From Candidatus Nomurabacteria bacterium RIFCSPHIGHO2_02_40_30 (GTDB taxonomy: Bacteria; Patescibacteriota; Minisyncoccia; Phycocordibacterales; UBA9973), in NCBI GenBank assembly GCA_001785445.1, contig MFTV01000016.1:6259-70258 (forward strand): a DNA stretch of 64,000 bases, read 5' to 3'. A program made the translations under genes and the position numbers. Of this stretch, positions 3,544 through 63,986 are shown piece by piece (within the stretch, counting starts at the first letter, position 1; the number at the start of each line of letters is the position of its first letter). Under the pieces are notes generated by a model, which searched no databases, was not told the DNA's origin, and worked only from the letters and a program-made list of their open reading frames with translations.

Positions 3544-3617
3544 ATTTTTAGTGTCCGTCCTCTTGGATTCGAACCAAGGACCCCAGAGGTATAAGCTCTG
3601 TGCTCTAACCAACTGAG
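3544..3617 (-). tRNA. tRNA-Ile with anticodon UAU
   Basis: Cloverleaf read by hand: acceptor CCGTCCT/AGGACGG, D arm GCTC-AGTTGGTTA-GAGC, anticodon stem CAGAG/CTCTG with loop CTTATAC (34-36 = TAT), T arm CTTGG-TTCGAAT-CCAAG, discriminator A. Confidence 0.7.
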
Positions 3618-3638
3618 CTAAGGACGGAAGATTGACTA

Positions 3639-5549
3639 TTATACCTTTATATCATCTTTCTTCTTTAAAACAATACCATGAGCTGTCAATATTTTCTCAT
3701 ACTCTTCTTGTTCCAGAGTTTCCACTTCAATTAACTTTTGGGCTATGGCATTGAATGCTTTTTTATGTTCTTTCAGTACTTTTTCTGCAGTTTTTAAGCC
3801 GTCATTTATCATTCTGGAAACTTCCGCATCCACTTTCACTCCGACTGCTTCAGAATATTCTTTCTCCATAATCTCACCAAATTGTGTCCTGCCGAGAGCG
3901 GGAGCTAGGGCAATAGGGCCGATGGCATCCGACATCCCGAAACGGGTGACCATGGCGCGAGCTAGGTTTGTCGCCACCGATAAATCAGAGGACGGTCCGG
4001 TCGTAATATCTCCGAAGATCATTTGCTCGGCGACGTAGCCACCGAGAGACATGGCGATGTCATCTATGAATTCTTTTTTTGACTGCAATCTTTTTTCTTC
4101 AAGCGGTAATTTGAGAGTATACCCTCCGGCATTGCCGCGAGAGATGATGGAAACTTTGTGCACTGGGTCGGCATACGGCAATACTGAAGCGACAAGCGCA
4201 TGCCCTGCTTCGTGATACGCGGTAATTTCTTTTTCTTTTTTGGATAGCAAATGGCTTTTGCGCTCCGGACCTAACATAACTTTCTCAATAGCGCGAATTA
4301 AGTCAAACTGAAAAACTTTTTTTCTATTTTCTCGCGCCGCCAATATCGCCCCTTCGTTCATCAGTGAATACAAATCCGCACCGGAGAATCCGGGAGTGCG
4401 CTCGGCCACTAATTTCAAATTAATATCTTCCGCCAATGGCTTTTGGGCTGCGTGAATTAATAGTATCGCTTCGCGGTCAGCACGATCCGGCAGATCAAGA
4501 ATTACTTTTCTGTCAAAACGCCCAGGACGAATGAGAGCTGGGTCTAAAACATCCGGCCTATTGGTGGCCGCCATCACTATCACTTTGTCATTCGGCTCAA
4601 AGCCATCCATTTCCACCAAGATTTGATTTAAGGTCTGCTCACGCTCATCGTTGCCTCCGCCAAACCCACCTCCACGCGTACGTCCTATAGCATCTATTTC
4701 ATCCACGAAGATTATGGCTGGCGCAGCTTTTTTGGCCATTTTAAAAAGGTCTCGCACCCGAGAAGCCCCCACTCCTACAAACATTTCTACGAACTCACTT
4801 CCAGATAAATGGAAAAATGGCACGCCGGCCTCCCCTGCCACCGCCCTCGCCAGCAAAGTCTTGCCTGTCCCCGGAGCGCCGGTTAGTATCACGCCTTTGG
4901 GAATTCTAGCCCCAATGTCTAGAAATTTCTTCGGGCTTTTCAAAAAATCCACGATTTCTTTTAATTCCTCTTTGGCTTCCTTGCAGCCGGCCACATCTTT
5001 AAAAGTTACTTTATTGTTTTTATCATTCGGGTCGGTGATGCGAGCTTTAGACTGACCGAAGGAAAGCGCCTGCATGCCCGCGCCTTTCACTTGCCGAGAT
5101 ATATACCAAAAGAAAATTAATATAAAAAATATCGGCAATAAAAACGGCAAAATATTTAAAAGCCAGAACATGAACCCACTTTCATCTTTTATTTGTATTT
5201 CAGTTTTTGCGAGAGCCTCATTCGTTACTCCATAATTAAAAAGTGTCTGCGAAAATGCCAAGCCTACTTCTTTTTTCGCTGTCTTCACGTCATTGTTCTG
5301 GTAAGTAATAGAGAGCTTGTCGCCCTCAACTAAAATAGTTTTTACATCTCCTGCTCCCACACTTTTTGCTAAATCAGAAATTGCAACTTCCGGCATAACT
5401 TTGCCGTCGCCGGAAATCACTAAATAGGCTGCGGTAATAAGCATAAAGATAAGTACTGCTCCGGCAATACTACTCGGCAAATTCGCTCCTTGTTTCATCT
5501 TTTTGCCTTTATTTTGCAGGTCGTTTTTATTTAGAAAATTAAAATCCAT
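3639..5549 (-). CDS. ftsH: ATP-dependent zinc metalloprotease FtsH
   Basis: N-terminal TM region, Walker [16 protein letters not shown] zinc site, 636 aa. Confidence 0.95.
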
Positions 5550-6070: not shown

Positions 6071-6458
6071 GGGGATGCAAGGCATAGACAGTTGGTCTAT
6101 TTGCATTGATGCATACCGAGCATGAACATAACCTCGTAAAAATTTGTTCAAATGTTAATTGCAAAATTAGCTACTAAAGTGAAAAACGCTGTTTCTCCAT
6201 ACTTCGGTATGAATGACTTCGCTTTCGCTTCGGTTTCCGCTTACGCGTAACCGATGTCTCTCTTATAGACTTCCGATATATGAGATGGGGCATAATATTA
6301 TCGGGATAGGAGAAAGACTTTCCTGACTTTTTTCCAAAACAAAAGGAATCGATTAAAAAATATTTGGCTCGTTTCTTAATTTTTTAATTTAAACAAAAAG
6401 CGCGCTACGTATGTAGACTTCACTGCAAACTCCCTCTGCACTGGGATTCAATTTCCCA
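6071..6458 (+). ncRNA. ssrA: tmRNA (ssrA)
   Basis: 5' GGGGATG pairs with 3' CATCTCC (one G-U). tRNA-like T arm TGGGA-TTCAATT-TCCCA sits immediately before the acceptor 3' strand. Internal TGCATACCGAG...CCTCGTAAAAA resembles the conserved PK1/resume-region sequence of E. coli tmRNA. An alanine-rich tag frame ends ...FAFASVSAYA then TAA near 6246. Directly downstream of smpB. Confidence 0.7.
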
Positions 6459-6606
6459 CATCTCCACTCGACTCATTCTGTCTATGACAGAATTCGCTCG
6501 TGGCAAGCCACAGCGGAAAATACCCTGAAGAATTTGAAGGGTGTTTTGAGGCGAGTGCCCTGAGCGACGAGTTGAACGAGGAGTCGAATGGGCATATAAT
6601 CCTATT

Positions 6607-19016: not shown

Positions 19017-19050
19017 GTCGTGAAATCACGCATATGCGTGATTTCACGAC
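19017..19050. repeat. 34-bp perfect palindrome P1 (GTCGTGAAATCACGCATATGCGTGATTTCACGAC)
   Basis: Perfect inverted symmetry, checked base by base. 37 bp downstream of the PaaX-like gene stop. Confidence 0.9.
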
Positions 19051-19087: not shown

Positions 19088-19621
19088 CTACAAACCAAAG
19101 TAAGTCTTTAATTTCTTGTCGTCCAAAATTTTATCCACCTCCAAAATTTCTATGTGTCTACGAACTCCGAAAAAGTCAGCCACAAAGAGTATCTCCCCTT
19201 CGCATGGATACGGATAGATCCATGCGCTTTTTTGGAATTTGAAAAAGCCTAGATCTTTTAGTTTCCATCTAAATGCATCGCGCGCTTTTTTAAATCTAAT
19301 AGGCAGGTCATACATTACTAAACTCCATTTTCCGTCCCATTTCTTTGGATTTTTTATCATAACCTCATCAATCAAAATATCCTGCAATTTATTTTCGCCT
19401 TTTGGGGTAAGCACGTTTGTATTTTCCCCTGCTACATGCCTTATAAATCTATAGCGCCTAAATCCATAGAGAATCCGTCTAGCCTCCCGGCTTTCATGCA
19501 AATGGGGCGGTAACTTTTCTCCAAGCGCAATAGAACAAAGAATGCTTTGCGCCAAATTTATCCCCTCGCCTCCAGCGCTAAACAATTTCTTAAGTTTTAT
19601 GACATGTTTTCGTTCAACCAT
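19088..19621 (-). CDS. PaaX-family-like small regulator (wHTH plus WDGKW middle domain; Cas2/VapD-like motif V-MYD...Q-S-W)
   Basis: 177 aa. KKWDGKWSLVMYDLP...FQKSAWIYPYP resembles the PaaX middle region. Paralog of 39042-39446. Confidence 0.5.
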   Translation of the reverse strand: MVERKHVIKLKKLFSAGGEGINLAQSILCSIALGEKLPPHLHESREARRILYGFRRYRFIRHVAGENTNVLTPKGENKLQDILIDEVMIKNPKKWDGKWSLVMYDLPIRFKKARDAFRWKLKDLGFFKFQKSAWIYPYPCEGEILFVADFFGVRRHIEILEVDKILDDKKLKTYFGL

Positions 19622-19628
19622 ATGTATG

Positions 19629-19660
19629 TAGTGAATTCTAGCATATGCGTGATTTCACTA
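19629..19660. repeat. Imperfect palindrome P2 (shares 18-bp GCATATGCGTGATTTCAC with P1)
   Basis: Located 8 bp upstream of the PaaX-like start codon. Likely operator or cassette boundary. Confidence 0.8.
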
Positions 19661-19775
19661 CAAGAGAAAATGGAACGCAGATGAAGAGAGATTAATTTTT
19701 ATTGAAAATAGAAAAAGGTGTCGGCAACCTTTTTCAGATTACGCAACACCTTTGATATTTCTGCCGAATTTTTCT

Positions 19776-20009
19776 TCAGTGAACTGATACTAACTCGTCA
19801 GCTTTAACTTGAATGCGTTCACCTTGATAGGAGATCAAGACTCTTACGTGATGGCTAGAATATCCACAAAAGAAGCCCACGCAGACTGCTCTGGTTTTTG
19901 ATGCCTTGCTATACACCAAAAATTTTCTGATTCCTTCAGCAGTAGCTAAGGAAAAGGTAGTGCCCTTTTTTAGAAGCTTGAATTGTACATTCTTTGTTTT
20001 GCCTGCCAT
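19776..20009 (-). CDS. Hypothetical small protein (77-87 aa)
   Basis: ORF overlapping or abutting the stop of 20015-20431, suggesting translational coupling. No recognisable family. Confidence 0.4.
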   Translation of the reverse strand: MAGKTKNVQFKLLKKGTTFSLATAEGIRKFLVYSKASKTRAVCVGFFCGYSSHHVRVLISYQGERIQVKADELVSVH

Positions 20010-20014
20010 TTTGC

Positions 20015-20431
20015 CTACTCCTTCAAAATTTTGATGCACCGATCAAGTTTGCCGAGAGATGCCTTCATGTCACAAGAATCCATGATCTGTTTTCGAATGA
20101 ACTCTAAGATCTCATGAGCAAGAAAGTTCCAAGATTTTCGATTAGTCGATTCATTTTGATCATTATAGTGGTGAACAGAACCCCACCCATCTTTTAAAAA
20201 TATAAACATGTGTCCATCATGGGGTCCCAGGAGGCCCTGATATTCGAACAGGATGAATGGGTACCCCTGTTTTGTAGAATCATTGATTCTGGACCACATT
20301 CCAAATTCTGCCATGAATTGAACAACTTGAGTCAAAAACCCATCGCGCAGCTCATGAATCGCCTTTTTGCTATTGGCAATGTCACTAGAAAATGCTGATG
20401 GTACATCAAAAGCAACTTGTCTTGTTTCCAT
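20015..20431 (-). CDS. Hypothetical protein (138 aa), visibly GC-richer than surroundings
   Basis: Clean ORF, divergent from the TrmB-like gene. No recognisable motifs. Confidence 0.45.
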   Translation of the reverse strand: METRQVAFDVPSAFSSDIANSKKAIHELRDGFLTQVVQFMAEFGMWSRINDSTKQGYPFILFEYQGLLGPHDGHMFIFLKDGWGSVHHYNDQNESTNRKSWNFLAHEILEFIRKQIMDSCDMKASLGKLDRCIKILKE

Positions 20432-20631: not shown

Positions 20632-21414
20632 ATGAAGGAACAATTAATAAAAATCAAAGAATTATTGAAAAATAGTGGTTTTTTAGACAAAGAAATAGCT
20701 ATATATTTGACTATTTTGGAACTTGGCAGAGGCACTGTGGCAGAGATATCTCGAAAAGCAGGCATTAATCGCTCGACTGGCTATGTGATTTTAGACAGTT
20801 TGGCTGGCAAGAACTTAGTAAGTATTTCCGGCAAAGAACCGAAGCAAGAATATGTAGCCCTTTCCCCTTCCAACCTTGTTGAGTACTTAAATAGGGAAGC
20901 ATCCAAACAAAAAAAGCTCACAGAAAGTGCAAGAGAGATTTTGCCAGAGCTGACTTCTATATACAATGTCGGAGACAGACCAAAAGTATTTTTTTACGAA
21001 GGTCTCGCTGGACTAGAACATGTGTATGAAGACTCGCTAACATCAAGTGGAGATATTTATTCCACTTCCACATATGAGGAAATGCACGAGACTCTGCCAA
21101 AATATTTTTCTACCTATTATGAACGCAGAGCCAAGAAAAAAATTTTCGTTCACACCTTTGTGGCTGATACTCCGCTCGCCCGAGAAAGAAAAGCGAACGA
21201 CATAAAAGAGTATCGCGATACTTCTCTCATTCCGCAAGATCAATTCCCTGTCCCAACTGACATAGAAATATATAACAATAAAGTTATGATTGCTTCCTGG
21301 AAAGAAAAGCTTGGCATCATAATTGAATCAGAAGAAATTGCCACAACCTTAAGAAGCGTATTCAAACTCGCTCTAATTGAAGCAAAGAAACACGATAAAA
21401 TTTTAGAGAATTAG
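20632..21414 (+). CDS. TrmB-family transcriptional regulator
   Basis: N-terminal wHTH (LTILELGRGTVAEISRKAGINRSTGYVILDSLAGKNLV) and a TrmB-type C-terminal domain. 260 aa. Confidence 0.7.
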   Translation: MKEQLIKIKELLKNSGFLDKEIAIYLTILELGRGTVAEISRKAGINRSTGYVILDSLAGKNLVSISGKEPKQEYVALSPSNLVEYLNREASKQKKLTESAREILPELTSIYNVGDRPKVFFYEGLAGLEHVYEDSLTSSGDIYSTSTYEEMHETLPKYFSTYYERRAKKKIFVHTFVADTPLARERKANDIKEYRDTSLIPQDQFPVPTDIEIYNNKVMIASWKEKLGIIIESEEIATTLRSVFKLALIEAKKHDKILEN

Positions 21415-21447
21415 TCGTGAATTTTCGCATATGCGAAAATTCACGAC
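21414..21447. repeat. 34-bp perfect palindrome P3 (GTCGTGAATTTTCGCATATGCGAAAATTCACGAC)
   Basis: Same outer arms and CATATGCG core as P1. Inner positions differ but remain self-complementary. Overlaps the TrmB stop codon. Confidence 0.9.
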
Positions 21448-36399: not shown

Positions 36400-38580
36400 T
36401 TATTTTCTGGCAGCAATTATGGTCTCGGCGACATTGTTTGGCACAATGTCATAGCGGAAGAATTCCATTGTGAATGACGCTCGGCCTTCGGTCATAGACC
36501 TTAGACCGGTCATGTAGCCGAACATTTCAGAGAGGGGCACGATAGCTCGGATGACTTTATTCATCCCACGATCTTCCATCCCCTCAATAAGGGCGCGCTT
36601 GCTTGAGAGGTTGCCGGTGACGTCACCCATGAATTTGTCCGGAGTTACCACTTCCACTTTCATCATCGGCTCTAGGATTACTGGGTTAGCTCTCTTACAC
36701 GCGTCCTGCACAGCCATGGAGGCGGCAATTTTGAAAGCCATTTCATTGGAGTCAACTTCGTGGTAACTTCCGTCCCAAAGTTCCACAGAAACATTTACCA
36801 TTTTAAATCCGGCCAATATTCCACGGTCTAGTCCTTCCTTGAAACCTTTTTCACAAGGAGCAATATATTCCTGCGGAATAACTCCACCTTTAATAGTATT
36901 CACAAATTCGAAGCCGACAGACCGCTTGGTATTTTTCGGCAAATCTTCCAACTCTTCTTTAGTCAAAATTTCCATTGGCTTAACTTTGATCTTTACGTGT
37001 CCGTAGTTTCCGCGTCCACCGGACTGCTTGATATATTTTCCTTCAGCTTCACTGGTGCCACTAATTGTCTCACGGTAGGCTACTTGAGGTTTGCCAACAT
37101 TGGCTTCCACGGTAAATTCACGCTTCATACGATCCACAATAATTTCTAAATGAAGTTCTCCCATGCCGGCAATGATAGTCTCGCCTGTTTCTTGGTCAGT
37201 AGATACTTTGAAGGTTGGGTCTTCTTGCGCCAGTCTGTTTAAAGCCATACCCATTTTTTCTTGGTCGGCTTTGGTCTTCGGCTCGATGCGAAGAGAGATA
37301 ACTGGTTCTGGAAAGACAATTCTGTCTAGAATAATTGGTTTATCTTCATCACAAAGAGTGTCGGATGTTATGGTATCTTTAAGTCCTACTGCTGCCGCTA
37401 TTTCTCCAGCAAAAACTTTTTTAACTTCTTCCCGGTCGTTGGCATGCATTCGCAGTATTCGGCCGATGCGTTCTTTGTTGCGAGTGCGAGGATTATAAAC
37501 ATAACTACCAGCAGAAAGAGTTCCGGAATAAACTCGGAAGAAAATAAGCTGACCAACGAATGGGTCCGTAGCCACTTTGAAAGCAAGCGCTGAAAATGGT
37601 TCAGAATCAGATGCTTGTCTTACTATAGGTTGTTCTGTATTTTCATCAATACCAGTAATAGGTGGGATGTCGGTCGGAGCTGGTAAATAATCCACAACTC
37701 CATCGAGCACGAGCTGAACACCTTTATTCTTCAAAGCAGAGCCGGCAAAGACTGGAAAGATTTCATTTGCAATCACGGCCTTGCGTAGAGTTTTCTTCAA
37801 GACATCAACATCTGGAACCATGCCTTCTAAGTATTCTGTCATCATCACATCATCCGTCTCAACAATTTTTTCTACAAGGTCATTGCGAAAACCTTCTGCA
37901 ACTTTTTTCATATCTTCTGGCAAAGAACTTAAGTCTTTTTCGACAACAGTGTTCCCCATCTCGCCTTCGAAGTAATATGCCTTCATGTGAAGCAGGTCAA
38001 CAACTCCTTCGAATTTGTCCTCAAGACCGATAGGTATCTGCATGCGAACTGCTTTCTTGGAAAGTCTGTCTAAAATAGTTGCATAAGAATGTTCAAAAGA
38101 TGCGCCAGTACGGTCTAACTTATTTATGAAACAAATACGAGGCACTTTCGCTTCATCAGCATAGCGCCAATTTGTCTCGGATTGTGGTTCTACGCCAGCT
38201 ACCCCGTCAAAAACGACAACTGCGCCGTCGAGCACACGCAAAGAACGCTTTACCTCTACGGTAAAGTCTATGTGTCCCGGAGTGTCGATGATATTGAAAC
38301 GGTGTTTAAATTCATTCTTTGCACCCGCCTTCGTCAAGACTTCGGCGGGCACGTATGTCGGAGTCCAGAAACAAGTCACTGCGGCAGAAGTAATAGTAAT
38401 TCCCCGTTCTCTTTCCTGTTCCATCCAGTCGGTGGTAGTTTCTCCGTCATGCACCTCACCTATTTTGTGTGATACTCCGGTATAAAAAAGCACACGCTCG
38501 GTCGTCGTAGTTTTGCCGGCATCAATGTGCGCAATAATTCCAATATTTCTAACTTTTTCTAGAGGATAATCTCGTTCCAT
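36400..38580 (-). CDS. fusA: Elongation factor G
   Basis: AHIDAGKTT, 726 aa. Confidence 0.95.
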
Positions 38581-38653
38581 AAAAAAAGCGCTTTACGCGC
38601 TAAGAATAATATACATTATTAGATGTTTTTTTGCAAATTACTTATAAAAATTT

Positions 38654-38911
38654 TTAAGGTGATTTTTGTTTTAGTTGTTTTTCAAGATTATATATTTCGT
38701 CGTCAACTTCATCCATTTGTTTATTTAACAAATCCAACCCTTCTTGATACGCTTGAACCAAATCCCCATGACCAGGGAATGGTACTCTGTCTTGTGCTTC
38801 TTGCATTGACTCCCTTCTTTGTCTCATTGAATCAAATTTCCTTCTTAAACCTTCTAACTTCAGACTAATTTCATTAGTTCCTTTATTTACCTGTGGCCCT
38901 TCCATTCCCAT
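38654..38911 (-). CDS. Hypothetical coiled-coil protein
   Basis: 85 aa, charged and helical. Part of the insertion between fusA and rpsG. Confidence 0.4.
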   Translation of the reverse strand: MGMEGPQVNKGTNEISLKLEGLRRKFDSMRQRRESMQEAQDRVPFPGHGDLVQAYQEGLDLLNKQMDEVDDEIYNLEKQLKQKSP

Positions 38912-38989
38912 AAATTTTTAAGTCAAATTAAAAAAGCTTTAATAATACCTAAAGTATACGCCCACCATGTAGCAAGTCAAGAAAGAATC

Positions 38990-39028
38990 TAGTGAATTGC
39001 TAGAATTACATATATGCGCGATAGCGTA
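38990..39028. repeat. CATATGCG-family repeat P4 (TAGTGAATTGCTAG...ATATGCGCGATAGCG)
   Basis: Left half matches P2 (TAGTGAATTCTAG). ATATGCGC-ATAGC is repeated at 39444-39460. Confidence 0.6.
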
Positions 39029-39041
39029 AATGTGTAAATAC

Positions 39042-39446
39042 TTAAATATTCCCCTCTTTTCCTGTATACGATTTCGCTAGCTTAAAAGTTTTCAGGTGAG
39101 CTTTGAGTCCAATAGCTTTTACATAATCCAAAAAATCTTTTGGCAGTGGCGATGGTCCTACCCACACACTTCTTTGAATCATTTCGTAATTAAATTTCTG
39201 CAAGTGTCGACGAAACCAGTCTCTTTCTTTTTTCTTATCATCTGTAATGTCATACATTACTATCAGATTTTTAGGTGCATCTTTAGTAAAATGACAAGAA
39301 AATGCTAGGTGATAAAATTTCCTTTTGCGATCTTTCTTCTTTGCCCGACTCTCATCAAGCCAAATAGGTAAACCAAAAGCGTTAACTTTGACTCCTTTGT
39401 AGTTAAAAGTTCTTCCCATGGGTAAATTATACCTCCGACTACACAT
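39042..39446 (-). CDS. PaaX-like/Cas2-like small protein, paralog of 19088-19621
   Basis: 134 aa. LIVMYDITDDKKKERDWFRRHLQKFNYEMIQRSVWVGPSP aligns with WSLVMYDLPIRFKKARDAFRWKLKDLGFFKFQKSAWIYPYP. Confidence 0.5.
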   Translation of the reverse strand: MCSRRYNLPMGRTFNYKGVKVNAFGLPIWLDESRAKKKDRKRKFYHLAFSCHFTKDAPKNLIVMYDITDDKKKERDWFRRHLQKFNYEMIQRSVWVGPSPLPKDFLDYVKAIGLKAHLKTFKLAKSYTGKEGNI

Positions 39447-39460
39447 ATGCGCTATAGCAG
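39444..39460. repeat. CATATGCG-family repeat P5 (CATATGCGCTATAGCAG), includes the start codon of 39042-39446
   Basis: Direct repeat of the core of P4. Confidence 0.6.
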
Positions 39461-39494
39461 ATATATGTATAATTATTTTTGAGTTCTAAAAACT

Positions 39495-39755
39495 CTAAAA
39501 CTGTAGCGATGTAACTGCACATGCACACAAAGCTAAAATCAAGGAGAGTATCAAAAACTTTGTACGATGGCTACCTATAAATGCAGATCGGTTTCCAAAC
39601 CAAGTTTTTGGTAAAAGCCAGATGATTAAAAAAGCCAAAGAAAAAAACCACAATATTAATACAGCTTGAAAATACGCTACGCAGAGATAGTTCTCTGGGT
39701 TATCACACGAATTGTTGAGACCGAAAATCATAATTATATTATAACAATAATACAA
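39495..39755 (-). CDS. Hypothetical small membrane protein
   Basis: 86 aa, two hydrophobic helices. Confidence 0.35.
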   Translation of the reverse strand: MYYCYNIIMIFGLNNSCDNPENYLCVAYFQAVLILWFFSLAFLIIWLLPKTWFGNRSAFIGSHRTKFLILSLILALCACAVTSLQF

Positions 39756-39760
39756 CAGAC

Positions 39761-40231
39761 CTACCAGGCAAAATGCGCAAAAGCTTTGTTAGCTTCAGCC
39801 ATTTTGTGAGTGTCTTCTTTCTTTTTAATAGCCGAGCCTTCGTTCTTCGATGCAGCAATTAATTCATCCGCTAATTTTAAATGCATTGGTTTGCCTTTAC
39901 CACCACGGGCTGCGTCACGAATCCACCGCATAGCGAGCGCTAGGCGGCGTTCTGGTCGCACTTCTATGGGCACTTGGTAGTTCGCACCTCCTATGCGCTT
40001 AGAGCGCACTTCCGTAGAAGGACCAGCATTTTTCATTGCGAGGTCAAAAATCTCAAGTGGATTGGGATTGCCTGTTTTTTCTTTTATTACATCAAAGGCC
40101 GCGTACATAACTTTTCTGGAAGTTTCTTTCTTGCCGGACCACATGATGTAATTTATAAATTTCTCCAACTTTTGAGAGTTGTAGATAAAGTCAGGCTGGA
40201 CTATATTTCTATTTTTTACTTTACGTCTCAT
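39761..40231 (-). CDS. rpsG: 30S ribosomal protein S7
   Basis: 156 aa, canonical S7. Confidence 0.95.
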   Translation of the reverse strand: MRRKVKNRNIVQPDFIYNSQKLEKFINYIMWSGKKETSRKVMYAAFDVIKEKTGNPNPLEIFDLAMKNAGPSTEVRSKRIGGANYQVPIEVRPERRLALAMRWIRDAARGGKGKPMHLKLADELIAASKNEGSAIKKKEDTHKMAEANKAFAHFAW

Positions 40232-40237
40232 AAATAA

Positions 40238-40654
40238 TTATTTGGCTTTAGGTTTCTTATTTCCATAAAGTGAACGACTTTGTCTCCTCTTTTCCACTCC
40301 TTGGGTATCGAGTACTCCACGCACGATATGATATCTCACTCCAATCAAGTCCTTCACACGCCCTCCACGAAGCATCACCACTGAGTGTTCTTGCAGATTG
40401 TGTCCTTCCCCAGGAATATATGCAGTAACTTCCATTCCATTAGTCAGACGAACACGGGCAATCTTTCGGAGAGCAGAGTTTGGCTTCTTTGGAGTGGTAG
40501 TTGAAACTTTCGTACAAACACCACGCTTGAAAGGCGCAGGGAAATAGACCGGTCGATTTTTCAAGACATTGAATCCTTTCGCCAGAGCTACGGTCTTGTG
40601 CTTGGAGCGGACTTTAACTCTATTTTTCTTAATTAATTGGTTGATTGTTGGCAT
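40238..40654 (-). CDS. rpsL: 30S ribosomal protein S12
   Basis: [10 protein letters not shown]..., 138 aa. Confidence 0.95.
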
Positions 40655-57876: not shown

Positions 57877-57934
57877 ACATAAAATTATAACAAAATAAAA
57901 ATTAAAAAATTTTAAATTAAGTGGATAACTTTGG

Positions 57935-58006
57935 GTGCCTACAGGGATTCGAACCCTGACTAAGAGCTCCACAAGCTCTAGTGCTAACCATTACACCATA
58001 GGCACC
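57935..58006 (-). tRNA. tRNA-His (GTG)
   Basis: Anticodon loop TTGTGGA, extra 5' G(-1), T arm CAGGG-TTCGAAT-CCCTG. Confidence 0.8.
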
Positions 58007-63839: not shown

Positions 63840-63911
63840 TGCCCCCGGCAAGAATCGAACTTACATTAGAAGGTTAGAAACCTTCTGTTCTATCCATTAA
63901 ACTACGGGGGC
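63840..63911 (-). tRNA. tRNA-Arg (TCT)
   Basis: Acceptor GCCCCCG/CGGGGGC, anticodon loop TTTCTAA. Confidence 0.8.
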
Positions 63912-63913
63912 AG

Positions 63914-63986
63914 TGCGCGATGCAGGACTCGAACCTGCGACCTTGATGGTGTAAACATCCTGCTCTACCAACTGAGCTAATCGCGC
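63914..63986 (-). tRNA. tRNA-Val (TAC)
   Basis: Acceptor GCGCGAT/ATCGCGC, anticodon loop TTTACAC, T arm GCAGG-TTCGAGT-CCTGC. Confidence 0.8.

Follow-up and report, generated by a model that had tools for sequence, protein, structure and literature searches.

A Cas2-fold protein family of Paceibacterota flanked by its own palindromes: a putative autoregulating DNA binder between rpsG and fusA

What does a small gene with a Cas2- and PaaX-like product do between rpsG and fusA, and what are the short repeats on either side of it? The locus lies in a 64,000-nt stretch of contig MFTV01000016.1 from Candidatus Nomurabacteria bacterium RIFCSPHIGHO2_02_40_30, an uncultivated member of the Paceibacterota within the Candidate Phyla Radiation (CPR). 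This stretch is called the window, and all positions refer to it. A sequence-only reading had pointed to a 134-aa open reading frame (ORF) between fusA and rpsG and to a 177-aa ORF with a WDGKW motif, and described them as paralogs with a Cas2/PaaX-like fold inside direct repeats. It proposed a selfish or mobile gene family or a repeat-targeting regulator family. Both ORFs were confirmed. The regulator family is the interpretation best supported, by promoter geometry and by covariation of protein and site. The gene probably encodes an autoregulating, dimeric, sequence-specific binder of duplex DNA with cognate dyad operators flanking its own gene. The features of the locus are:

39042–39419, minus strand: 125-aa gene, the probable true extent; the product has Pfam PaaX_M and Cas2 matches and an AlphaFold2 (AF2) model.
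39042–39446, minus strand: 134-aa ORF, the mechanically called form of this gene, between fusA and rpsG.
39426–39431, minus strand: TATAAT -10 box, 6 nt 5' of the ATG at 39419.
39440–39469, both strands: upstream 30-bp dyad site and putative operator, TACATATATCTGCTATAGCGCATATGTGTA in gene orientation.
39007–39036, both strands: downstream 30-bp dyad site, TACACATTTACGCTATCGCGCATATATGTA in gene orientation, 5 nt past the stop codon.

The ATG at 39419 is probably the start codon, giving a product of 125 aa. This start is favoured because the ATG at 39446 falls inside the upstream palindrome, most homologues have 124–130 aa, one NCBI record has 125 aa, and a TATAAT at 39431–39426 sits 6 nt upstream. 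The overlap of a repeat with the ATG at 39446, reported earlier, exists in that this ATG lies within a palindrome; the start of the gene is likely the downstream ATG. In gene orientation, the layout is palindrome (39469–39440), 8 nt, TATAAT (39431–39426), 6 nt, ATG (39419). The palindrome ends 8 nt before the -10 box, and its dyad centre is located near -34.5.

The sites at 39007–39036 and 39440–39469 are 30-nt quasi-palindromes. They are 80% alike as direct and 83% alike as inverted repeats, and both are conserved in the str loci of other genomes. The downstream site is asymmetric but nearly invariant between genomes. The supposed direct repeats around the two window genes are instead palindromes of 30–34 bp, that is, dyad sites. 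The repeat assigned to the 125-aa gene is indeed part of its two conserved quasi-palindromes. The 15-mer pair alone (39011–39025 and 39444–39458, one mismatch) is marginal, with 0.07 pairs expected by chance and at least two matches in 1/100 shuffles. Its CATATGCG is located in the dyad centre of the sites of the 177-aa gene and at an arm position in the sites of the 125-aa gene and is therefore no homologous core. The feature truly common to the sites of both genes is ACGC-N4-GCGT around the dyad.

The 177-aa paralog and the palindromes of its type are located as follows:

19088–19621, minus strand: 177-aa paralog with a PaaX_M match; it contains WDGKW.
19627–19662, both strands: upstream imperfect palindrome of the 177-aa gene.
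19017–19050, both strands: downstream perfect 34-bp palindrome, GTCGTGAAATCACGCAT/ATGCGTGATTTCACGAC, between convergent genes.
21414–21447, both strands: solo perfect 34-bp palindrome of the same type, GTCGTGAATTTTCGCAT/ATGCGAAAATTCACGAC, with no PaaX_M gene adjacent.

The 18-mer GCATATGCGTGATTTCAC was found exactly where the sequence-only reading had placed it, at 19030–19047 and 19641–19658 (0.02 expected by chance). The minus strand matches it too, at 19020–19037, 10 nt away. Matching both strands at overlapping positions, the 18-mer is half of the perfect 34-bp palindrome at 19017–19050. The promoter-proximal arm of the upstream palindrome (19627–19662) contains TAGAAT (19640–19635, minus strand), so this palindrome overlaps the -10 box of the 177-aa gene. 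The same was observed in four loci of other genomes (L086–L089), where the -10 box (TAGAAT or TAAAAT) is overlapped by a 34-bp palindrome whose end is 2–4 nt from the ATG. Three of the four (L086, L087 and L089) have another copy past the stop codon. A cognate repeat-gene association was present for 4/4 homologues of the 177-aa protein.

The co-occurrence of repeat and gene extends well beyond the two loci of the window. A scan with one genome per species yielded 327 loci, of which 80 were fetched. Among about 85 family genes examined in other genomes, almost all have a 30-bp palindrome upstream, and most have a second palindrome 0–25 nt past the stop codon. Conversely, 87 of 99 palindromes of this kind in 0.91 Mb of flanking DNA are no more than 150 nt away from a family gene; none was obtained with shuffled sequence. 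The core ACGC-(CATG, TATA or GATC)-GCGT is common to the family. The arms vary by paralog yet stay self-complementary, and they are common to both sites of one gene. Upstream and downstream sites of a gene are on average 84% identical, in comparison to 64% for the sites of different paralogs in one metagenome-assembled genome (MAG), the same value as for random pairs. An intrinsic terminator was considered as a substitute for a missing downstream palindrome. This was unsupported: terminator-like sites were present at 2/34 genes without and 8/48 genes with the palindrome.

The upstream palindrome is part of a promoter with a fixed geometry. Its end is 7–8 nt from the -10 box in 73/80 loci, the -10 box is exactly TATAAT in 53/80 loci, and the distance from -10 box to ATG is 6–7 nt in 57/80 loci. 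The promoter has no -35 hexamer; the dyad centre occupies about -35. The spacer between palindrome and -10 box is conserved in length, not in sequence, which argues for a functional coupling at the DNA level. Because the TATAAT sits 6–7 nt before the ATG, the transcript is predicted to be leaderless or near-leaderless. The fixed position before the -10 box places the upstream site outside the transcript of its own gene.

The proposed Cas2/PaaX-like fold was supported by profiles, structure prediction and structure comparison alike. The 134-aa protein matches in Pfam PaaX_M ('PaaX central Cas2-like domain', PF20803; 45.3 bits, cutoff 24, 9.5e-12) and CRISPR_Cas2 (PF09827; 30.7 bits, cutoff 23.8, 3.6e-7). 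It also matches TIGR01573 cas2 (31.2 bits, cutoff 24.5), and a check for membership in a defence system with PADLOC matched only Cas2 models. The AF2 model of the 125-aa protein has a β-α-β-β-α-β domain at residues 50–118, preceded by a short N-terminal β-hairpin and a poorly defined basic linker. Foldseek against PDB returned almost exclusively Cas2 chains among the top 26, with probabilities near 1 and E-values near 1e-2; VapD (3ui3) and Escherichia coli PaaX (8a39) were also among the matches. A sequence search of PDB gave nothing significant, and the fold search alone was informative.

The 177-aa protein matches PaaX_M with 67.4 bits (Pfam; cutoff 24, 1.2e-18). Its predicted secondary structure (AF2) consists of three helices and a wing, that is, a predicted winged helix-turn-helix (wHTH), then a linker helix and the Cas2/PaaX_M domain. 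Over this 64-residue Cas2-like domain it shares 31% identical amino acids with the 134-aa protein (E=2e-9). By sequence, the two genes are distant paralogs with a Cas2/PaaX_M fold, as had been proposed. The window protein has 1698 homologues, of which the best 120 are 59–79% identical, and it is identical to a protein from a Candidatus Nomurabacteria genome. For the 177-aa protein, 178 homologues were found with 54–82% identity. A profile search of 1.84 billion representative proteins yielded 1865 relatives, mostly of 155–200 aa with other N-terminal extensions. The 125-aa architecture is present in only a few clusters and thus represents a compact subfamily.

One residue of the protein covaries with one base pair of the site. 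The residue is located two positions after YD(I/V), is the first residue of helix α1 in the AF2 model and corresponds to D60 in the window protein (MYDITD). The base pair is the second from the dyad centre. The pairing holds for 82/82 genes without exception: sites with a GC(T/G)A centre coincide with D or E in 32/32 genes, and sites with a GCCATGGC centre with H, S, Q, N, K or A in 50/50 genes. The sole intermediates are two genes with mixed sites. In distance trees, residue and base change at least 11 independent times, always together. An independent metagenome set behaved likewise: 33/33 proteins beside CCATGG sites were non-acidic at this position (25 H, 3 F, 3 Y and 2 S).

In the major groove, A and C offer amino groups to an acidic side chain, and G offers acceptors for donor side chains. 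The pattern thus makes chemical sense. That T and G can replace each other at the covarying position is probably explained by their partners: A and C each carry an amino group in the major groove. The acidic residue would face A or C, and the donor residue would face G. Taken together, the results strongly indicate binding of the protein to the palindromes around its own gene, and they suggest that the Cas2-like domain sits on the dyad.

The outer arms may be read by another part of the protein. wHTH-type paralogs have the outer arms TCGTGAA and an unchanged core, ACGC-N4-GCGT. One of them, in L106, joins TCGTGAA outer arms to the core ACGCCATGGCGT, which is typical of the 125-aa family. Because this site mixes the arms of one type with the core of the other, the sites appear to be modular: the core may be read by the shared Cas2-like domain and the outer arms by the differing N-terminal parts. 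Mutual information between outer-arm positions and N-terminal residues was also calculated; the signals follow deep clades and were set aside.

These data are compatible with the following mode of action. The 125-aa product would form a homodimer, as suggested by the dyad symmetry of its sites and by the dimerisation role of the domain in Cas2 and PaaX. The Cas2-like domain would sit on the dyad axis of the 30-bp palindrome, with D60 reading the base pair second from the centre, and the N-terminal β-hairpin and basic arm would read the outer arms. The protein would occupy both cognate palindromes around its own gene. Occupancy of the upstream site near -35 would control transcription of the gene itself, most likely as autorepression by occlusion, as for PaaX at Px. 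The downstream site may serve as a second operator, via looping or as a roadblock. The family would be an old one of Paceibacterota, composed of paralogous, self-contained cassettes, each with its own palindrome specificity; the 177-aa paralog would be the wHTH-bearing version.

PaaX, a repressor that responds to phenylacetyl-CoA, offers a precedent. It combines a wHTH with a dimerisation motif in the centre and a ligand domain at the C-terminus, and it hinders RNA polymerase at its own promoter, which is thereby repressed (PMC9493321). Like the PaaX proteins of E. coli and Pseudomonas (PDB 8a39, 3l09), the window proteins have the central Cas2-like domain, and PaaX_M is the best profile match. 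PaaX binds as a dimer to inverted-repeat operators at its own promoter (PMC9493321), and the dyad here is located at the gene's own promoter, where a similar binding is likely. The 177-aa paralog shares in addition the predicted N-terminal winged helix and WDGKW. However, neither window protein has the C-terminal ligand (phenylacetyl-CoA) domain: there is no PaaX_C match, and both end after the Cas2-like domain. The full-length model TIGR02277 gave 13.5 bits for the 125/134-aa protein and 18.3 bits for the 177-aa protein, far from the cutoff of 264.55. The 125/134-aa protein has no wHTH and no HTH profile match. A paa operon is absent; the neighbours are rpsG/fusA, secY/cmk/adk, smc, aminoacyl-tRNA synthetases and others. 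The operators differ, too: contiguous 30–34-bp palindromes on both sides of the gene here, TGATTC-N27-GAATCA for PaaX. The Cas2-like domain seems to read bases at the dyad centre, whereas that of PaaX is described only as a dimerisation motif. Without wHTH, ligand domain and paa context, the 125-aa protein is not PaaX proper.

Other systems share single traits. Genes for REP-associated tyrosine transposases (RAYT) are single-copy genes bracketed by cognate repetitive extragenic palindromes (REPs), which vary with the protein subgroup and have extra solo copies between genes. This resembles the arrangement found here. In contrast, the protein here is not an HUH/Y1 transposase, with no Y1_Tnp match and no HUH motif among the invariant residues; solo copies seem to be few per genome versus tens to hundreds of REPs, and the upstream palindrome forms part of the promoter, with a constant spacing. 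Small Cas2-fold proteins outside CRISPR loci are also known as stand-alone Cas2/VapD-like nucleases (toxin-antitoxin pairs VapD-VapX; BPSL1038, PMC10491678). Here, no recurrent small partner (antitoxin) gene is present, and both the flanking palindromes and the layout of the promoter suggest DNA binding rather than a toxin. Literature searches revealed no account of such a family in CPR, be it of PaaX_M-only or of Cas2-like proteins flanked by palindromes.

The sequence-only reading had taken the gene for an insertion into the str operon. The genes concerned are:

40238–40654, minus strand: rpsL.
39761–40231, minus strand: rpsG.
36400–38580, minus strand: fusA.

The order rpsG-gene-fusA was present in 13 of the 80 fetched loci. 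On three long contigs (307–587 kb), a homologue is located between rpsG and fusA together with 0–3 unrelated small ORFs. With these three distinct contigs and three public records, the placement and the same two palindromes are found in about 20 related genomes. The contigs with an identical ribosomal protein S7 that were read share the arrangement in 24/24 cases. fusA has its own promoter-like element (TTGCAA-17-TATATT), therefore no operon is visibly interrupted. The comparison of sequences shows an inherited arrangement: the 125-aa gene is no recent insertion, and the str-locus copy is transmitted vertically.

About 80% of the family members are located outside the str locus, each with its own cognate palindromes. 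Their neighbours include smc (8 cases), trmD, aminoacyl-tRNA synthetases, DNA polymerase III and PAP2 and are spread over more than 70 unrelated families. A conserved partner gene was not found on either side, where the genes are housekeeping genes of various kinds. Among the 25 commonest families in the Pfam summaries of the neighbours (62 upstream, 64 downstream), there was no transposase, integrase or cas family. Protein clades track both the palindrome type and the genomic position, for example the str locus or the place after smc. Clades with fixed positions and clade-specific palindromes indicate old, vertically inherited paralogs.

Could the palindromes act at the level of RNA, as transcript hairpins for termination, stabilisation or processing, with the protein as an RNA binder or RNase? 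Some Cas2 and VapD proteins are reported endoribonucleases (PDB 3exc and 3ui3 are among the fold matches), the palindromes of the 177-aa gene are predicted to fold as RNA into very stable hairpins of -25 and -22.5 kcal/mol, and solo sites prefer gaps between convergent genes. The mismatches within the palindromes speak for duplex DNA. Upstream sites have 35 G:U, 24 A:C and 107 other mismatches and downstream sites 22 G:U, 32 A:C and 121 others; G:U is not preferred, and transversion-type mismatches dominate. The half-site CAGC recurrently replaces ACGC in many clades, which would break two hairpin pairs. As RNA, the downstream site of the 125-aa gene (39007–39036) is no more stable in folding than shuffled controls (-3.8 kcal/mol, z -0.57). 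The upstream site is outside the transcript of its gene, the palindromes are not succeeded by T-runs, and Rfam has no match at them. The interchange of T and G at the covarying position fits a major-groove read-out of the duplex, not base pairing. The sites likely act as duplex DNA, and an RNA element is improbable. A genuine CRISPR Cas2 or a degraded CRISPR-Cas remnant can be discounted almost entirely, even though the TIGR01573, Pfam and PADLOC models match and several source records bear the name 'CRISPR-associated endonuclease Cas2'. The shared traits are a ferredoxin-like β-α-β-β-α-β fold, a YD(I/V) that ends strand β1 with an invariant Asp, and a QxSVW motif. As a homodimer, Cas2 contacts duplex DNA in the Cas1-Cas2 complex, and both systems are tied to palindromic repeats of about 30 bp. 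However, Cas1, a CRISPR array and a cas operon are absent here, and without cas1 and array the protein is not a CRISPR Cas2. No cas families were present in the called neighbours of L001–L004, which are ribosomal and housekeeping genes, or in the Pfam summaries of about 125 neighbours, and Tandem Repeats Finder detected no repeat-spacer array in the 64-kb window and none that was convincing in 1.7 Mb of loci. The profile match spans only about 45 residues, and the protein has an extra N-terminal arm of 50 aa, a fixed housekeeping position and its own flanking operators. The two repeats bracket the gene itself rather than forming an array, and Cas2 is not known to read sequence, whereas base-specific recognition seems likely here.

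A mobile or selfish cassette is the other explanation to be weighed: the palindromes would be recombination ends, the Cas2-fold protein a nuclease or recombination factor and the solo palindromes scars of loss. It is partly compatible with the autoregulating DNA binder, as end-binding and autoregulation could coexist. One clear duplication supports it. L011 and L013 are two loci of one MAG with unrelated flanks, and their 91% DNA identity is confined to the stretch from palindrome to palindrome, ending about 5 nt past the downstream palindrome. Similarity is lower in the promoter-proximal 5' part, and gene conversion could therefore also account for the identity. This pair is the single clear recent duplicate among about 115 cassettes. 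One presence/absence case was also found. In L011 and L213–L216, the cassette is located between HAD and NUDIX genes, and a 94%-identical HAD orthologue carries it; in a relative with a 76%-identical HAD, the HAD and NUDIX genes are 17 nt apart, with no cassette and no palindrome. Several MAGs hold 2–3 family copies, solo sites with the exact 20-bp core occur frequently, the cassette edge is repeatedly bordered by variable DNA, and the active-site Asp of Cas2 is invariant. This weaker evidence suggests that the unit from palindrome to palindrome can occasionally be copied. A cassette that lives by moving is nevertheless doubtful, because the clades hold fixed genomic positions and the contigs with an identical S7 all share one arrangement. 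No target-site duplication is visible at the L011, L013 or L213 junctions, and a transposase family match, an integrase and an HUH motif are missing, in contrast to insertion sequences and transposons; the neighbours are housekeeping genes. The family has no member in the IMG/VR viral contigs, so that a phage association was rejected, and the 60–79% protein identity indicates purifying selection. The selfish or mobile family of the sequence-only reading thus retains the duplication, the presence/absence case and the solo palindromes in its favour, and the stable positions of the clades against it. A combination of both ideas, in which a free-living Cas2-fold family recognises its own palindromes of about 30 bp base-specifically, and protein and repeat are maintained together and now and then spread as a cassette bounded by palindromes, with solo copies of the repeat elsewhere in the genome, is rather unlikely. 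If true, it would be a new type of minimal selfish or mobile element in CPR bacteria and a living example of the Cas2-repeat partnership on which the CRISPR adaptation module could have drawn.

Several observations weigh against the autoregulating DNA binder. Metagenome contigs were scanned for the exact 20-bp core ATATACGCCATGGCGTATAT, which gave 131 sites: 50 beside a family gene, 36 too near a contig end to be judged and 45 solo. Solo palindromes thus make up 45 of 95 assessable sites. They are located more often between convergent (14) than between divergent genes (5), and a -10 box at the canonical spacing is present at only 7/45 solo sites versus 31/36 upstream sites. This placement and the rarity of a canonical -10 box indicate that the palindromes also do something besides promoter control. 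Other points concern the family itself. One clade is mostly devoid of the downstream site. The confidence of the AF2 model is moderate (mean pLDDT 74.6), with the N-terminal 45 residues poorly defined. The metal-binding Asp of Cas2 is invariant in the family, so the protein may have nuclease activity. Finally, the regulator seems to control only itself, without an evident purpose.

On re-check, 42 of the 45 solo sites had no PaaX_M-type gene nearby. Solo sites are longer palindromes with their own arms; additional binding sites, roadblocks and remnants of lost cassettes are possible explanations. About 4 family-like solo sites were present in the 0.91 Mb of flanks of the fetched loci. A subgroup of solo sites (metagenome loci L122, L131, L142, L152, L154, L182 and L197) is centred in an inverted repeat of about 100 bp, with TCTGAAATAT, the core, ATATTTCAGA-taATGAGGGTT and, further out, GGGTATTTTGG on both sides. 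It resembles a miniature inverted-repeat transposable element or a structured-RNA gene. In L182 and L197, it follows a family gene at a distance of 238 nt.

If the autoregulating DNA binder is confirmed, it would be a compact new type of DNA-binding module. The Cas2 fold has so far been a dimerisation or integrase-scaffold domain or a nuclease; here, it seems to read the bases at the centre of a palindrome. The covariation provides a testable recognition rule, and the paralogs with their operators (about 125 aa and 30 bp) form a natural set of orthogonal pairs. CPR bacteria (Patescibacteria) have very few recognisable regulators, and public records routinely carry members of this family under a wrong name, 'Cas2' or 'PaaX'. 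The annotation can be corrected: the family members are not CRISPR remnants. A question raised is why genome-reduced bacteria keep several self-flanked, apparently self-regulating cassettes beside rpsG/fusA, secY and smc.

The outer edges of the cassettes are repeatedly abutted by indels and lineage-specific unannotated ORFs and are apparent hot spots of variable DNA. This was seen for L111 in comparison to L173, L118 and L129 and in the rpsG-fusA gap of L001, L004, L013 and L016. L111 has about 290 nt of extra DNA directly upstream of the palindrome. Other near-identical cassettes that seemed to be relocated (L173 versus L111, L118 and L129) were explained by indels beside the cassette in homologous contexts.

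In L086 and L087, the 177-aa gene likewise follows secY and precedes cmk/adk. The solo palindrome at 21414–21447 shares its first base with the end of the stop codon in a TrmB-like regulator gene (20632–21414) and is 26 nt away from the secY stop. Its outer arms and core are those of the sites of the 177-aa gene 1.8 kb away, and its inner spacer is different. L086 and L087 have no such site at the equivalent position. Between the TrmB-like gene and the 177-aa gene, the window contains two unannotated ORFs of 87 and 138 aa (19776–20431), for which neither a Pfam family nor a homologue in the fetched loci was found. The stretch from secY to the 177-aa gene varies by genome, with a 241-aa ORF in L086 and a 300-aa ORF in L087.

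Two small ORFs beside the 125-aa gene had been listed as well:

39495–39755, minus strand: 86-aa 'membrane ORF' in the spacer between rpsG and the cassette.
38654–38911, minus strand: 85-aa ORF adjoining the module.

The 86-aa ORF is absent from the gene calls of three public records with an identical S7, and it has no family match and no homologue among 216 loci. Uncalled and without homologues, it is probably a spurious ORF and not a gene. The 85-aa ORF is annotated in public records yet specific to its lineage; it has no Pfam family above the cutoff and no homologue among the 216 loci. It is a neighbour and no conserved part of the module, and neither ORF is a conserved partner of the 125-aa gene.

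A promoter-like TTGACT-16-TATACT (38980–38953) was found by the promoter scan ahead of the 85-aa ORF. It belongs to a conserved promoter-like element directly 3' of the downstream palindrome, composed of TTGAC(A/T), a spacer with a run of 6–9 G and TATACT or TACAAT. The element is present in the window (38953–38980), in L001 (about 4465–4500) and also in L013, L015 and L004, and it precedes a variable unannotated ORF, in the window the 85-aa ORF. The leader of fusA (38581–38640, minus strand) combines the promoter-like element with a GC hairpin, AGCGCGTAAAGCGCT (38601–38587), and seven consecutive T directly before the fusA ATG. It resembles a terminator or attenuator and is conserved in L003 (about 4470–4506), L001 and L004. 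Elsewhere in the window, Rfam identified a tmRNA gene and four tRNA genes (6071–6469, 3554–3627, 57934–58005 and 63840–63986), all of which are ordinary.

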